Positions 54,986-61,689 of a stretch of DNA of 64,000 nucleotides are shown here, piece by piece; the stretch's first letter is position 1; every line of letters begins with the position of its first letter. The translations under genes and the position numbers were made by a program. Below the pieces are notes generated by a model. It saw nothing but the letters and a program-made list of their open reading frames with translations, was not told the origin of the DNA and searched no databases. The stretch lies in the NCBI RefSeq assembly GCF_041886205.1, contig NZ_CP169029.1; one strand, written 5' to 3'. Origin of the DNA: Escherichia coli (GTDB lineage Bacteria; Pseudomonadota; Gammaproteobacteria; Enterobacterales; Enterobacteriaceae).

Positions 54986-55567
54986 TTATGCAGCGAGATT
55001 TTTCGCTACGAATTCCCAGTTCACCAGCGCCCAGAAGTGCTCCAGATAGCCAGGACGTGCATTGCGATAGTCGATGTAATAAGCGTGTTCCCAGACATCA
55101 ACGGTCAGCAGCGGAGTCGCATCGGTGGTCAGCGGAGTACCCGCGTTAGAGGTTGAAACGATAGCCAGTTTGCCATCGCTGTTTTTCACCAGCCAGGTCC
55201 AGCCAGAACCAAAGTTTTTGATCGCTGCATCAGTAAACTGCGCTTTGAAATCGGCAAAGCTGCCAAAAGATACGGCGATAGCTTCAGCGACTTTTCCAGT
55301 CGGTTCGCCACCGGCGTTCGGTGCCAGGCAGTTCCAGTAGAAAGTATGGTTCCAGACCTGAGCTGCGTTGTTGAATACGCCACCTTCAGAGCTGCGAATA
55401 ATCTCTTCCAGTGATTTACCTTCAAACGCGGTACCTTTAATCAGGTTGTTCAGGTTAGTGACATAAGTCTGATGGTGCTTGCCGTAGTGATACTCGATGG
55501 TTTCCGCAGAAATGTGCGGTGCCAGAGCATCTTTAGCATATGGTAGTGCAGGTAATTCGAATGACAT
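54986..55567 (-). CDS. sodB: superoxide dismutase [Fe]
   Basis: 193-aa [35 protein letters not shown]... Confidence 0.97.
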
Positions 55568-55694
55568 TGCTACTCTCCTTTATTATTAATTTGCATACGT
55601 ACAATAGCCTTATTGTGCGTATGGATAGGGTAGCAAATTAAAAGGTGAGACAAAAGATGAACTTACCCTGTTGCCGTAACAACAGGGTAAAGTT

Positions 55695-56510
55695 TTAGCG
55701 AAGTGTTTTTGGGGTCATTACCCGACGAGCGCCAACATAGTGGCGCTGCCAGTAGTCTTCACTGAGAGAAGTGATTTGAATTTCCTGACCTGTGCGCGGT
55801 GACTGAATAAATTTGCCGTTGCCGACATACACGCCGACATGATCGGCTGTGCCGCGTCCCTGAGTACGGAAAAAGACCAGGTCGCCGTTTTTCAGTTCAC
55901 TACGTTCGATTGGCGCTGCATCACGCAGGTGATACATTTCATTCGCCGTACGCGGAATACGAATTTTCACCAAATCTTTATAAGCGTAATAAACCAGGCC
56001 GCTGCAATCAAAACCGGTACGCGGTGAGCTGCCACCCCAACGATATGGCTTACCAATTTGCTGCATCAGTTTATTCATTGCCACTTTCGTAGCTTTTTGC
56101 ACCTTCGCTTTGTGCGCGTCGGCAAGAGTTCCTGACGCGGCATTTTTGACTTTCACACAATGCGATTTATAGCCCTTACGTTTGGTACACTTTTCGGTAA
56201 AGCTGGCTGAGGCCGTTTTATTGACGGCGTGTTTGCTGCGAGTTTTGGCGTTTTTAGAAGCGGTAATGGAAGATTTTTTAACGGAAGAAGCGGTTTTGCT
56301 TTTGGTCGTACTTTTACTGGCGGCTTTTTTCGCTGTTTTCTGGGTCTTTTTGGTGGTTGCCGTGCTTTTCTTTTTATCTGCTTTTTTGGTGATATGAGTG
56401 GTAGCAGAACTCTCCCTGGCTTGCTTTGAAGCATGGGCCATAGGCGTTAAAGGCAGGGTGGTAAAAAGTAAAGCACAGAGCGTGATCGAAATACGGTTTA
56501 TCCGCGCCAC
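55695..56510 (-). CDS. mepH: NlpC/P60 peptidoglycan DD-endopeptidase with Lys/Thr/Ser-rich low-complexity linker
   Basis: 271-aa ORF with signal peptide; C-terminal NlpC/P60 domain (DCSGLVYYAY). Confidence 0.88.
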   Translation of the reverse strand: MARINRISITLCALLFTTLPLTPMAHASKQARESSATTHITKKADKKKSTATTKKTQKTAKKAASKSTTKSKTASSVKKSSITASKNAKTRSKHAVNKTASASFTEKCTKRKGYKSHCVKVKNAASGTLADAHKAKVQKATKVAMNKLMQQIGKPYRWGGSSPRTGFDCSGLVYYAYKDLVKIRIPRTANEMYHLRDAAPIERSELKNGDLVFFRTQGRGTADHVGVYVGNGKFIQSPRTGQEIQITSLSEDYWQRHYVGARRVMTPKTLR

Positions 56511-57241: not shown

Positions 57242-60200
57242 CTATCCCCAATCTAGCCCTTGTGGCGAACTTGAAAATCCCGCCTCACGCAGCAACGTAA
57301 ACATCGGCGTTTGCCGGACCGGTAGATCATTCACTTCTGTTAGCGTAAAGCGCAGCCGTGGTTCGCGACGCAGTGCGGTAGTCAGCGCGTGGAAAATCTC
57401 TGGGGCGAGTAATTCCTCTTTTTCCTGCCAGACCAGCATTTTTTTGCCGCCTTGCGCCAGATAGAGTAACAATTTGCCGCCAGAAACGACCACCAGCGCA
57501 CCCGCCCGACGCGTTGGAACCAGCGTTGCCGGATGTGCAGGCCAGGGCAGAAGATTTCCCCACACATTAGCCGGATCGTTGGCGGAGAGCGCCACTGGTG
57601 TATAGTGGCGCGTTTGCGCGGTTTGTGTCGCCAGGTCACGCAATCGATCAATAGTCAGACGTTCAGCGAATTGCGCGCCACCCAGACCTTCTACAAAACG
57701 ACCTCGCATAATTCGCCCGGAGTCTTCCATACTTCGACAAAGCGTTTGCATCGATGGAAACCCGCCAGGGATATTTTCGGCTATCACCGCCTGACGACTG
57801 ATGATGCCGTAGCGGTCGAGCATATTTTCCGCCAGCGCCAGCATCCTTTCGGTATCGTTTAGTGGCTCCACCTGCAATAACGACCAGCGTCCAGCCAGAT
57901 TTGGTGTGTTGTAAGATACCCGCGGCGAGACGGGTTGCGCATAGACAGGACGTCCACGACGAGCCCGGTGACTGCGGCGAGTTGAGGTGCGTGCGTTGGA
58001 ACTGCTGCGGGTGAGGGCGCGTAACGGTGCCCAAATGTCGCTGGTGATGACGCCTTGCCAGACCAGCGCCCATAACGCCTCTTGCAGGGCAGAGAGATCA
58101 ACCGATTCGCCGATTTTGTCGCGTATCCGTTGGCTGATTTGTTGTGCAAACCAGGCTCCTCCGTCAGCCAGAACAGCGACTATCGCTTGTTGCAGCGCCG
58201 AACGATTCGCCTGATCCGCTTCGGCGGGAGTGAACGATTCTGCAGCATATTCCTGTAGATGCAGTGCCACCAGGCCGTCATCTTCACCCAGTTTTTTTTG
58301 CCCCGACCAGATAACCGCACCGGTTGCCAGTAATTCATCGAGCATTTCTGACGAATAGTCGCGTACGCGGGCAGGCAGGATCTGGCTTTCCCAGAGTGAG
58401 GCGGGTAAACCGACTCCGGCAAGCTGTTCGATCACCCGCATCACGCCATCTACGCCCTCATAAACGCCTGGCGATGTTGAGGCAAAGAGCGCCGGGCTAC
58501 CATCGGTGGCGGGTAATACGCCCTGACGTTCCAGCAGCAATCGCGCATAGGTCGTGGCTGCAACGGGACGCGTCGCTTCTCTGGCAGCTTGCAGCGAGCG
58601 CAAACGCAGACGACGAAATACTTCATCGCTCACCCAGATGTCTTGTTGCAGATTCATCACCAGACCCTGTTCACGCAGTTGCTGAAGCTGCTCTTCGACA
58701 ATGGCAATACCGAGACTAAACTCATGAGCCAGTTGTTCAGCCGTGACCAGAGCATGAGCCCGGAGATAGCGCAGAAAGAGGTCGCGAAGCGGGTAACTGA
58801 CTCTATGTAAATAAATCTCTGGCAATGACTCTGGTAGTCGTACGCCGAGGGCATCACGCAGCCTGGCGGCATCATCCATACAGGCAAGACGCTCCTGTCC
58901 GCTAATCATCGCCGGGAAGATTCGTTTTACTGCAAGAAGATTTTCCAGATACGACGCAACCTCTTCACTGCTGCCTGTATGCCGTTGCGCCAGGTCTTCA
59001 ACGGTCATTGGCCCCAGTTCGCGCAGCAGGTCGAACAATCCTTCTTCACCTTTCGCTCTTCTGCCAGGAGCCAGTCGTTGCAACTCTTCTTCCACCTGGC
59101 GAATGACCTGCGGGTCGAGTAATTCCCCCGGATCGACCTGTCCGAGTAGATTGCGCAGTAACTCGCTGTCCAGCGACAGTACGGATGCCCGGCGCTCTGC
59201 CAGCGGGGCGTCGCTCTGGTACATAAATTCCGCGACATAGCCGAACAATAAACTGGTGGCGAAAGGCGAGGGCGTAGTAGTCGTTACATCGGATATTTGA
59301 ATTTCGCCACCGTTCAGGCGAAGCATCAAACGTTCCAGTGCGGGAAGATCATAAACATCTTGCAGACATTCGCGTAGGGTTTCGAGAATGACCGGAAAAT
59401 CCGGATATCCCTGAGCGATTTCCAGCAACTGACTGGCGCGCAGCCGTTGTTGCCAAAGCGGGGTGCGATGGCCCGGCGTGCGGCCCGGCATTAATAATGC
59501 CCGCGCGGCGCATTCGCGAAAACGGGCGGCGAAAAGTGCCGAACTGCCTACCGCCTCGCGGACAATTTGCAGCAACTTTTCTGGTTCAAACAAAAAAATC
59601 GCGGCATCGGGCAATTTACCATCGGTGTCAGGAATACGTGCAACAATGCCGTCATCACTGGCGACCACCGACGCGTCAGCGCCCCATAGGGCATGTATTC
59701 GCCCGGCAATCGCCAGCGCCCAGGGTTCATGCACCCGTCTTCCATAGGGAGAGTGCAAAATAATACGCCAGTCACCAATTTCATCACGGCACCGTTCGAG
59801 GACCAGATGGCGACTCCCCGGAACGATGCCCGTCGCGTTGCGCTGCTCCTCAATCAACCCCTGAATATTGGCGATCGTATTTTCTTCTGCCAGCCACGGG
59901 GGAATAGTCCCGGAAAAGAACGCGCCATCCGCCAGCAAATGAAGAAAATCGCCGATCATCTCGCCTAATTCAGCCGGACGTCCGTTACCTTCACCACGCC
60001 AGAAGGGGAGCCGGGCAGAACGACCCGGAGCAGGAGTCACAATCACCTGATCGCGGGTGATTTGCTGGATCCGCCATGAGGTAGCGCCGAGAGTGATAAT
60101 GTCGTTCACCCGCGACTCATATACCATCTCCTCATCCAGTTCACCCACCCGCCGCGAACCGGCCTTTTCTTCACCTTCGGGTAATAACACGCTATACATG

Positions 60201-61567
60201 CCACGATCCGGAATGGTGCCGCCGCTGGTAACCGCCAACAATTGAGCGCCAGGTCGGGCGGTCAATATCCCGGTCTCCCTGTTCCAGACCAGTTTGGGGC
60301 GAAAAGCAGAAAAATCGCCAGAGGGATAGCGCCCGGAAAGCATATCCAGCGTGGCGTCAAAAACACGTCTTGGCAGATCTTTCCACGGTGCGGCACGGCG
60401 TACGCGGGAGTACCATTCGTCTACCTGTAATGCATCCATCGCCGCGGCGGCAACGGTTTGCTGCGCAAGGACGTCGAGAGGATTATGCGGTGGTGTCAGG
60501 TTTTCCAGCCTGCCTGCGAACATACACTCTACAATGACTGTGGAATCGACTAAATCACGCCGGGTACGGGGGAAAAACAGCCCTTTAGATACACCGCCAA
60601 CCTGATGTCCGGCGCGACCAATGCGTTGTAACCCACTGGCAACAGAAAGCGGCGTTGCCACCTGAATCACCAGATCCACCGCGCCCATATCAATCCCCAG
60701 TTCAAGACTGGAGGTTGCGACCACGCAGCGTAATTCACCCGATTTCAGCGCCTGTTCGGTGATTGCTCGTTGTTCTTTAGAGACGGAGCCGTGGTGTGAG
60801 CGGGCAATAAAAACGTCGCTACTTTGTACACGGTTAGAGGTTGCGCCGGAGGTCGACTCGAAATGGGCCGCATCAACGGCGATAGACGGGGAACGCTGTA
60901 AGCGTGCGGCGTAAAGCTCATTTAATCGTGCCGTCAGTTTTTCCGCCAGCCCCCGCGAATTAGTAAAGACAATGGTCGAGCGATGGCGCAACACTTCATC
61001 AAGGATGCCCGTTTCAATATATGGCCAGATGGAGCCTTCCCGGCCGGCATGGCTGTCTTCGCCAGTGCCGCTGGCGACCGATGAGACATCATCCATATTG
61101 GCGACCGGTACGACAATCCGTATCTGCGGATGACGCATTGCGGGCGGGTTGACTACCGTAACCGGGCGATCGCCACCAAGAAATGCTGCCACATCGCTGG
61201 CTGAGCGCACAGTGGCAGAAAGGCCAATTCGCTGTGCTGAGGTGTGGAGCAGCGCATCGAGCCGCTCCAGACTTAACGCCAGATGCGCACCACGTTTACT
61301 GCCCGCTACCGCGTGGACTTCATCAATAATTACCGTTTCGACGCCGCGTAGCGTTTCGCGCGCGCGGGAGGTCAGCATCAGATAGAGTGATTCGGGTGTG
61401 GTGATCAGAATATCCGGCGGATTACGGGTGAGTTTGCTGCGTTCCTGTGCAGGCGTATCGCCAGTACGGATCCCTACGCGAAGATTGACTTCCGTTTCGC
61501 CGCGCCGCTGAAAAGCGGCGCACGAAAAACGCGAAAGCGTTTCACGATAAATGCGAAAACAACTGTT
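57242..61567 (-). pseudogene. lhr: ATP-dependent helicase Lhr, 5'-truncated (lacks N-terminal region with helicase motif I)
   Basis: Track ORF 57242..61378 (1378 aa) begins just before motif II (IIDEVHAV); frame stays open upstream to a stop at ~61568 with no ATG/GTG/TTG; Lhr in K-12 is about 1538 aa; yniB starts at 61690. Confidence 0.8.
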
Positions 61568-61689
61568 TCACGGAAAGGCATAATGGTTAAACACCCGGTT
61601 CTGGCGCATATAACTGAACGAAGTACACGACAAAAAAATATGTCACAGGTAAACTAAGTGAAACGACGCGTCTTAATCAAGGAGAACTC

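Follow-up and report, generated by a model that had tools for sequence, protein, structure and literature searches.

A lysine-rich, predicted disordered N-terminal tail of Escherichia coli MepH, variable in sequence and length and apparently constrained in composition

Within a 64,000 nt stretch of Escherichia coli contig NZ_CP169029.1 (the window, taken at its full length), a short segment of DNA has an odd look, raising the question of what it encodes and which of its properties, if any, are kept by selection. A sequence-only reading had described positions 56150–56440 as a low-complexity Lys/Thr/Ser/Ala-rich linker in MepH. The gene name is correct. The CDS at 55695..56510 (− strand; GTG start, 271 aa plus stop in the open reading frame listing) shows 100% DNA identity over 816 nt to RefSeq CDSs annotated 'peptidoglycan DD-endopeptidase MepH', and the gene order is sodB-mepH-grxD, with sodB downstream and grxD upstream. 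Identity and neighbourhood (sodB, grxD, lhr) both place it in the MepH/YdhO orthologous group. It does not differ from the E. coli MepH/YdhO (mepH, synonym ydhO) reference, having the same DNA, the same neighbours and the 271 aa length of the common allele, i.e., the commoner, short allele that is without the QKAS/QKTS codons. A mepH match was found in 5,425 of 5,426 complete E. coli genomes.

The product of the flagged DNA is the N-terminal tail (residues 28–100) of this periplasmic peptidoglycan DD-endopeptidase. MepH is an already known, characterised and redundant cell-wall enzyme that becomes essential in a ΔmepS ΔmepM background, and its low-complexity tail is an ordinary one; as indel-prone tails of this kind are commonplace, the locus is of little significance in itself. 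The explanation that we favour, with a probability of roughly three in four, is that the tail is disordered and cationic, that its length would be driven by slippage, and that selection would act on its bulk properties.

The rest of the protein is well ordered and conserved. A single Pfam domain in MepH passes its curated cut-off, NlpC/P60, with none before residue 153. The match (PF00877; E = 8.3e-37, 125.8 bits against a cut-off of 23) covers residues 153–263 and profile positions 1–105 of 105, the catalytic domain itself occupying residues 153–271 (55698..56054, −; pLDDT 94–98). The catalytic residues C169 (FDCSG motif) and H224 (DHVGVY motif) are nearly invariant across an alignment of 120 sequences and invariant in 23 orthologues and, with the profile match, assign the protein to the NlpC/P60 family (peptidase family C40). 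Upstream of the domain is a long, conserved helix (residues 123–152; 56055..56144, −; pairwise identity 0.65), predicted at 129–149 with pLDDT 95–98 from about residue 131. It is preceded by a conserved beta-hairpin (residues 101–122; 56145..56210, −; pairwise identity 0.58) that carries C108 and C118, both invariant in the 23 orthologues and inferred to form a disulfide. The AlphaFold run relied on here used the 120-sequence alignment; a run with only 23 aligned sequences lacked depth (mean pLDDT 47), modelled the domain poorly and left order and disorder inseparable. The hairpin strands (104–109 and 117–122) appear in both models, with pLDDT 72–81 in the deeper one.

At the other end of the protein, residues 1–27 (MARINRISITLCALLFTTLPLTPMAHA, followed by S) form a putative signal peptide (56430..56510, −), a hydrophobic N-terminus with a mean Kyte-Doolittle value of +1.11. 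Residues 25–28 read AHA then S, a putative A-x-A cleavage site by sequence, and both A27 and S28 are invariant in 23/23 orthologues. The MepH construct expressed by Voedts et al. comprised residues 28–271. By inspection, I-T-L-C at residues 9–12 does not match the lipobox consensus. The mature protein would begin with a moderately conserved segment, S-x-Q-A-R... to H39 (residues 28–40; 56391..56429, −), with a pairwise identity of 0.51 and 3% gaps among the 23 orthologues; A31, like S28, is invariant there, while Q30 and H39 are nearly so.

The core low-complexity tract follows (residues 41–100; 56211..56390, −). It is polycationic, consists of 85% K/T/S/A and is predicted to be disordered. 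It contains 20 K+R and a single D+E residue, for a net charge of +19, with no aromatic residues and only three of L/I/V/M; the peptide quoted in the sequence-only reading, KKADKKKSTATTKKTQKTAKKAASKSTTKSKTASS, corresponds to MepH residues 42–76. Over the wider range of residues 25–100, for which a K/T/S/A-rich composition had been proposed, these four residues make up 80%, compared with 24% of residues 141–271, and Shannon entropy in 25 aa windows falls to 2.1–2.4 bits in the tract against 3.5–3.9 bits in the catalytic domain. Low entropy together with depletion of hydrophobic and aromatic residues is the signature of a disordered low-complexity region. A disorder prediction, suggested in the same reading, points the same way: in the deeper model residues 1–100 have pLDDT 47–58 and no secondary structure. 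PDB homologues, MepS among them, begin to align only at about residues 122–150 and leave the tract uncovered, the one exception being an alignment to LytE. Residues 28–100 are therefore predicted to form an intrinsically disordered, strongly cationic, low-complexity tail. The range 56150–56440 proposed earlier corresponds to residues 24–121; it does include this tail but is wider than it (residues 28–100, 56211–56429) and also takes in the conserved two-cysteine hairpin. The term 'linker' is a misnomer, as the segment comes directly after the putative signal peptide and forms an N-terminal tail with a free end, not a connection between two domains. With no Pfam domain before residue 153 and no lipobox by inspection, there is nothing N-terminal for it to link.

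Related systems show similar designs with clear differences. In MepS (Spr), as in MepH, a disordered N-terminal segment and a helix come before the NlpC/P60 domain, and both proteins are NlpI-Prc substrates. MepS, however, is a lipoprotein whose tail measures about 36 aa and is not rich in lysine, whereas MepH has no lipobox by inspection, a polycationic tail of about 73 aa, and the two-cysteine hairpin. The Listeria monocytogenes p60 (Iap) is likewise an NlpC/P60 wall hydrolase with a low-complexity region, rich in hydroxy amino acids, outside the catalytic domain, and in both p60 (PMC3917698) and MepH the length of this region varies between strains by in-frame, 12 nt steps. In p60 this Thr-Asn repeat region is encoded by a genuine tandem array of a hexanucleotide, (ACAAAT)n, and is located between folded domains, while the MepH tract is non-periodic, lysine-rich and N-terminal. 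Across the latter the NCBIfam p60 model does align, but far below its cut-off, and the two regions are alike in kind without being homologous. A third parallel is the N-terminal linker of Pal, also a disordered envelope segment, for which length and bulk properties rather than sequence are proposed to matter (PMC12826056). Periplasmic tethers such as this one run from a lipid anchor to a folded domain, while in MepH the tail is free-ended and far more positive.

The proposal that tail length differs between strains was borne out, and the uniform length in all related genomes that would have refuted it is not seen. Among 5,426 complete E. coli genomes, the 816 nt allele is carried by about 65% (3,546) and an 828 nt allele, longer by four residues (QKAS or QKTS), by about 35% (1,876). 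Variability within the species is modest, with essentially two alleles, and the 12 nt indel is a simple two-allele strain marker. In alignments the indel maps to CCAGAAAAC (56335..56343, −), where the window has the short form. Long alleles read CCAGAAAGCCAG|CCAGAAAAC at this site, and strain 042 reads CCAGAAAACCAG|CCAGAAAAC, a perfect 9 nt repeat at 12 nt spacing; the indel thus sits at a direct repeat, CCAGAAA(AC), spaced 12 nt apart. Outgroups carry residues at this position, indicating that the long form is ancestral. A 12 nt deletion between the CCAGAAA(AC) repeats would then convert the ancestral 275 aa form to the K-12-type 271 aa allele. The short allele occurs on at least three SNP backgrounds, and the indel is the sole difference between the window allele and the O26 long allele.

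Larger, rare in-frame deletions of 9–61 aa were also seen within the N-terminal region of E. coli variants. Microhomology at these sites is 3–9 nt, against a null mean of 1.1. In variant P0008, a 30 nt (10 aa) deletion is flanked by the two copies of a 9 nt direct repeat, ACCGCTTCT, at 56286..56294 and 56256..56264 (both −). Short direct repeats and microhomologies in the biased tract sequence would favour in-frame slippage. The rare variants are singletons or uncommon, and some may be sequencing errors; a 75 nt probe lying in or spanning most of these deletions was covered in each of the 5,424 complete genomes with a match. Among 109 relatives, the length of the N-terminal region varies between 89 and 146 aa, while 103 of them share a C-terminal part of 117 aa.

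If the tail is variable, what is maintained? Across genera (23 orthologues), pairwise identity of the core tract is only 0.29 with 17% gaps, compared with 0.91 and no gaps for the NlpC/P60 domain. The same 23 tracts stay within a narrow band of composition, with 27–35% K+R, 0–5% D+E, a net charge of +15 to +23 and a length of 50–68 aa, and lysine-rich, acid-poor N-termini persist in distant relatives down to about 40–50% identity, their lengths being very different. Tract composition thus appears to be under selection. Judging by these comparisons, what is selected would be bulk properties, not sequence: about 50–68 aa with some 30% K+R, almost no acidic residues and a high content of S/T/A.

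The rival view that is hardest to set aside is that the tail is a neutral spacer, tolerated without function, in which composition reflects mutational or translational bias and length reflects drift. The low identity and frequent indels of the tract are what such a spacer would show, as is the raised nonsynonymous polymorphism within E. coli, where the ratio of nonsynonymous to synonymous variable codons is 7:9 in the N-terminal region against 1:14 in the domain (Fisher p = 0.037, a nominal significance based on 11 alleles); this contrast is also in line with selection for composition instead of sequence. Natural alleles miss up to 61 aa of the region and in one (assembly GCA_900448615.1, variant P0013) about 50 aa are read in another frame, suggesting that the protein may do without this exact sequence and perhaps without much of the length. 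Loss of mepH alone is moreover tolerated in the laboratory (PMC11789061). Free drift, however, should bring in acidic and hydrophobic residues and lead to loss of the tract, and the narrow band of charge and composition across genera, the persistence of lysine-rich, acid-poor N-termini in distant relatives, and the intact coverage of the 75 nt probe in 5,424/5,424 matching complete genomes are all contrary to this, making a functionless spacer rather unlikely.

Selection on the bulk properties of the tail, the reading we prefer, invites the question of its purpose. The tail follows the putative signal peptide and precedes a conserved module of two-cysteine hairpin, long helix and NlpC/P60 domain. 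MepH would be soluble, having neither lipid anchor nor LysM domain, and a positively charged tail would hold the enzyme near the anionic sacculus and membranes. It may also offer the Prc/NlpI proteolytic system an unstructured handle. This role, as a flexible polycationic tether with a possible second use in proteolysis, is plausible at somewhat under even odds. A literature search on MepH, MepS and NlpI-Prc for N-terminal, disordered or linker content returned no data on the MepH tail. A bolder version is tentative and somewhat doubtful: the tail would be a charge-selected module doing the job that the lipid anchor does in MepS, or the LysM domain in MepM, acting as an electrostatic hold and perhaps as a gate to turnover by Prc. 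If true, MepH dosage would be tuned from one E. coli lineage to another by the common 4 aa indel and the less frequent deletions. A charge that is kept while the sequence changes at least provides a testable idea of how a soluble endopeptidase stays at the sacculus or reaches Prc/NlpI.

It is quite unlikely that the tract is specifically an NlpI-binding or Prc-recognition degron, with the 271 and 275 aa alleles setting different half-lives. Prc/NlpI does degrade MepH (PMC8996183; PMC11789061), and the paralogue MepS binds NlpI by its disordered N-terminus, which is required for tight binding (PMC11211486). In the complex, however, the NlpI-bound MepS element becomes an extended helix adjoining the core (PMC11211486), and this is probably better matched by the conserved MepH helix 129–149 than by the hypervariable tract. 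A specific binding site should also be conserved in sequence, which the tract is not, and part of MepH proteolysis is NlpI-independent (PMC11789061).

At the DNA level, the odd look of the tract results from compositional bias and not from tandem repetition. It had been called purine-rich and repetitive, and neither description held up well. Purines make up 57.7% of the tract and 53% of the remainder of the gene, a weak difference, and the true bias is to A (40%) and C (27%) on the coding strand. No tandem repeats were present, nor any periodicity above codon shuffles: Tandem Repeats Finder (minimum score 30) reported nothing in the tract, autocorrelation at lags of 3–60 nt did not exceed that of codon-shuffled controls (top z 1.4), and the sole direct repeat found inside the tract by repeat search was a 20 nt pair with 75% identity. 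A VNTR of the Listeria iap type was rejected, as there are no head-to-tail units and the only trace of one is a degenerate 12 nt doublet at the indel site of long alleles. Four amino acids, encoded mostly by AAA, ACN, GCN, AGC and TCN, account for 80% of the tract, and this makes the coding strand A/C-rich with many A4–A6 runs. Runs of at least five A occur at 33 per kb in the tract compared with 4.3 per kb across the window; the 180 nt tract contains three A6 and three A5 runs, A6 being the longest.

Such a cluster of A-runs raises the thought of a contingency locus, in which frameshifts would switch MepH off and on by phase variation, and frameshifted alleles do occur at all three of the A6 runs. 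The run at codons 42–43 (56382..56387, −) has shortened to A5 in P0013 (GCA_900448615.1), the first of a compensating pair of indels there. Strain PK8276 likewise has A5 at codons 61–62 (56325..56330, −), and RefSeq labels its CDS 'frameshifted'; the run at codons 78–79 (56274..56279, −) is A7 in variant P0030, whose samples include ERR13763722 and which is found in 39 blocks of the public assembly collection, with the gene caller starting in an alternative frame. FCI5 is a further frameshifted assembly. These homopolymers are frameshift-prone. Known phase-variation switches, however, use tracts longer than the 5–6 nt found here. The A7 allele was present in 0 of 5,424 complete genomes (75 nt probe, identity bands); a 47 nt A7 probe gave no matches, for which low-complexity masking is a possible cause. 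Among the matches listed there were only two frameshifted records, both of which may be sequencing errors, and other variants (P0010 and others) show several one-base A-run losses in alignment, as is typical of homopolymer miscalls. Phase variation is therefore highly improbable, and was rejected on run length and population data.

The sequence-only reading had also noted spurious overlapping ORFs, and three were indeed found besides mepH: a 93 aa alternative-frame ORF beginning MLQSKPGRV (56153..56434, −) and two antisense ORFs of 71 aa (56182..56397, +), in a frame with only two stops in 96 codons, and 66 aa (56229..56429, +). All are by-products of composition, as the codon usage of the tract leaves two antisense frames and one sense frame nearly free of stops. 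The idea that one of them is a real gene is scarcely credible: although four ORFs of at least 60 aa (mepH counted) overlap the region, a number reached by 2.2% of same-sized windows in the 64 kb, and some database proteins (P0030, P0013) include the translated 93 aa frame, these proteins derive from mepH itself, as frameshift artefacts or as variants, the shortage of stops follows from the MepH codon pattern, the tract is rich in indels and shares only 29% identity across genera, and an Rfam scan of the mepH-sodB region gave only a sub-threshold SodB 5′-UTR match at the sodB leader, outside the tract. A genuine overlapping gene was rejected on this lack of conservation and on the origin of the database entries, the 93 aa frame joining an annotated protein only in the frameshifted alleles. 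For annotation, the tract is a source of spurious ORFs, and A-run frameshifts within it give rise to chimeric 'exported hydrolase' calls that start in the wrong frame.

The ORF at 55695-56510 on the minus strand encodes a 271-residue product. At the DNA level it matches, with 100% identity, many RefSeq coding sequences annotated 'peptidoglycan DD-endopeptidase MepH', so that the name given to the gene in the sequence-only reading is correct and the protein is the reference MepH itself. The gene adjoins sodB and grxD, the same as in other E. coli, and is matched in 5,425 of 5,426 complete E. coli genomes. A match is absent from one genome and plasmid-borne in another, and in the complete genome of strain TUM2805 (NZ_CP128950.1) mepH is reduced to its last 116 nt, beside grxD. 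In nature, then, mepH is lost or relocated, though very rarely.

The range 56150-56440, which had been flagged as a low-complexity linker encoded by repetitive, purine-rich DNA, corresponds to MepH residues 24-121, and the peptide quoted from it to residues 42-76. Low complexity is a solid observation at the protein level: Lys, Thr, Ser and Ala make up 80% of residues 25-100 and 85% of residues 41-100 (24% of residues 141-271), and the Shannon entropy of 25-residue windows is 2.1-2.4 bits in the tract compared with 3.5-3.9 bits in the catalytic domain. Of residues 41-100, 20 are Lys or Arg, one is acidic and none is aromatic. The description of the DNA did not hold. Tandem Repeats Finder reported no tandem repeats in the tract, even at a score of 30, and autocorrelation at lags of 3-60 nt never rose above codon-shuffled controls (highest z 1.4); a direct-repeat search returned a single pair (20 nt, 75% identity). 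Purine content is 57.7%, against 53% in the remainder of mepH. The tract is instead A/C-rich (coding strand A 40%, C 27%, G 17.5%, T 15.5%), with many short A-runs (33 runs of at least 5 nt per kb, against 4.3 per kb across the window). It is genuine, though an unremarkable part of a gene already known, and of low interest.

Spurious overlapping ORFs were indeed found over the tract, one of 93 aa in an alternative frame on the mepH strand and two antisense (71 and 66 aa). With mepH included, the region is overlapped by four ORFs of 60 aa or longer, a number reached by only 2.2% of equal-sized windows. Stop codons are unevenly distributed between frames (sense 0, 1 and 7; antisense 2, 2 and 7), indicating that the open frames are by-products of the codon pattern of the MepH frame and not of a general scarcity of stops.

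The only Pfam domain above its curated cut-off is NlpC/P60 (residues 153-263), and alignments to PDB relatives, including MepS, begin at about residue 122 or later, except for one LytE alignment that extends back to residue 51. An AlphaFold run using 23 close orthologues was uninformative (mean pLDDT 47). A second run, using an alignment of 120 relatives, gave no structure for residues 1-100 (pLDDT 47-58), a beta-hairpin within residues 101-130 (strands 104-109 and 117-122; pLDDT 72-81) and, from about residue 131 onward, pLDDT values of 95-98, with a helix at 129-149 followed by the catalytic domain. Residues 1-100 are thus predicted to be disordered. The term 'linker' does not apply, since the tract directly follows the putative signal peptide and no lipobox is evident by inspection, which makes it a free N-terminal tail and not a connection between two folded parts.

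Pairwise identity and gap fraction were scored by region across 23 orthologues from Escherichia, Citrobacter, Salmonella, Kosakonia, Leclercia, Enterobacter and other genera. The values are 0.56 and 0.26 for the signal peptide (residues 1-27), 0.51 and 0.03 for the start of the mature protein (28-40), 0.29 and 0.17 for the tract (41-100), 0.58 and 0.02 for the hairpin (101-122), 0.65 and 0.01 for the helix (123-152), and 0.91 and 0.00 for the NlpC/P60 domain (153-271). Residues 28-40 (56391-56429; S-x-Q-A-R..., H39) are far better conserved than the tract that follows, and might serve as a short motif for binding or recognition at the protein's free end. Two cysteines, C108 and C118 (56157-56189), are invariant in the 23 orthologues and sit 10 residues apart on the predicted hairpin, which separates the disordered tail from the catalytic module. 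A periplasmic disulfide between them is plausible; no description of one was found in the literature.

Within the tract, bulk properties are conserved while the sequence drifts. Among the same orthologues, its length is 50-68 aa, net charge +15 to +23, K+R 27-35%, D+E 0-5% and S+T+A 44-58%. Lysine-rich, acid-poor N-termini persist in relatives down to about 40-50% identity, some of them much longer. P0222, a distant relative, has an N-terminal region made up of true tandem AAKK(P/S/T)-type units, so in some lineages, in contrast to E. coli, real repeats form the cationic tail. Within E. coli, variable codons are 7 nonsynonymous and 9 synonymous in the N-terminal region compared with 1 and 14 in the domain (Fisher p = 0.037, 11 alleles).

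The suggestion that length varies between strains was borne out, both within E. coli and beyond. The span from the end of the signal peptide to the PYxWGG motif is 89-146 aa in 109 relatives, while the remainder, running from the motif to the C-terminus, measures 117 aa in 103. Two mepH lengths, 816 and 828 nt, occur among the 60 E. coli genomes listed, and differ by a 12-nt indel (QKAS/QKTS) placed after T56 by alignment. Junction-specific probes, each designed so that a single allele could seed a megablast match, detected the long allele in 1,876 complete E. coli genomes and the short allele in 3,546; both probes matched at least strain 042, so the split is stated as about 35% long and 65% short. 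The long allele reads CCAGAAAGCCAG|CCAGAAAAC at the indel. Strain 042 carries CCAGAAAACCAG|CCAGAAAAC, a perfect 9-nt direct repeat with 12-nt spacing, and dropping one repeat unit yields the window sequence exactly. Since residues occupy this position in E. albertii and other genera, the long form came first and the short, K-12-type form arose from it by deletion. At least three SNP backgrounds (window-type, 536-type and O157-type) carry the short allele, and the indel is the sole difference between the window allele and the long allele of O26:H11; such a distribution would fit recurrent slippage or gene conversion.

Rarer in-frame deletions of 9-61 aa, all singletons and all within residues 63-145, are present among E. 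coli database proteins. Their end points, rebuilt on DNA, share 1-9 nt of microhomology, including a perfect 9-nt repeat (ACCGCTTCT) in one and 5 nt in several others (random-deletion mean 1.1 nt; P = 0.04 for 5 nt or more). No deletion of codons 67-90 was seen in complete genomes, a 75-nt probe being covered in all 5,424 that matched. Frameshifts also occur at the A6 runs: in strain PK8276 one run is shortened to A5 and mepH is annotated 'frameshifted', and in the NCBI assembly GCA_900448615.1 two compensating indels leave about 50 aa of the tail read in an alternative frame rich in K, R and P. Database variants of the P0030 group have A7 at 56274-56279, and the gene caller starts in the 93-aa alternative frame; this allele was not found in complete genomes (75-nt probe, 5,424 matched). 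Some of these frameshifts may be homopolymer sequencing errors.

In kind, the tract is like the strain-variable Thr-Asn region of another NlpC/P60 hydrolase, Listeria p60 (PMC3917698). The p60 region lies between domains and consists of genuine (ACAAAT)n tandem repeats; the tract in MepH has no periodicity, is rich in lysine and is terminal. Disordered tethers of Pal and other envelope proteins are also similar, but the MepH tail lacks an anchor.

MepH would be soluble in the periplasm; its paralogue MepS has a lipid anchor, and MepM a LysM domain. The MepH tail, about 70 aa long and with a net charge near +20, would be attracted to the polyanionic sacculus and anionic membrane surfaces, and might also offer Prc an unstructured stretch. 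Prc controls MepH levels, partly via NlpI and BipP (PMC8996183; PMC11789061). Tight NlpI binding by MepS needs its disordered N-terminus, and the element that becomes ordered is a helix adjoining the core (PMC11211486). The MepH counterpart of this element would be the conserved helix 129-149, so a specific NlpI site within the hypervariable tract seems less likely. A tail selected for charge as a localisation or turnover module, with length alleles tuning MepH dosage, would be mildly novel, and is given a probability of about 0.3; no tests of the tail were found in the literature on MepH, MepS and NlpI-Prc.

Elsewhere in the window, lhr (57242-61627) is truncated to an ORF of 1,378 aa, against about 1,538 aa in K-12. 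Homology to lhr stops at 61508 and that to the yniB/yniA region begins only at 61628, a junction spanned in none of 5,426 complete E. coli genomes. Beyond it the genes run yniB, yniA, a ydiZ-like ORF and pfkB, an order expected of a duplication or rearrangement junction, or of an assembly chimera. The first ~55 nt past the break (61505-61560, TGAAAAGCGGCGCACGAAAAACGCGAAAGCGTTTCACGATAAATGCGAAAAC) match scattered, unrelated loci in 89 genomes, the laboratory strains S17-1 and BW2952 included (91-97% identity among the matches listed), and the next 67 nt (61561-61627) gave no match. The ~55-nt stretch resembles the right end of phage Mu, pointing to a possible Mu-type insertion or rearrangement in lhr. 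At the sodB leader (55538-55642, minus strand), the Rfam family RF02775, the SodB 5'-UTR thermometer, scores 31.4 bits (E = 0.0034), which is below its gathering score of 98.
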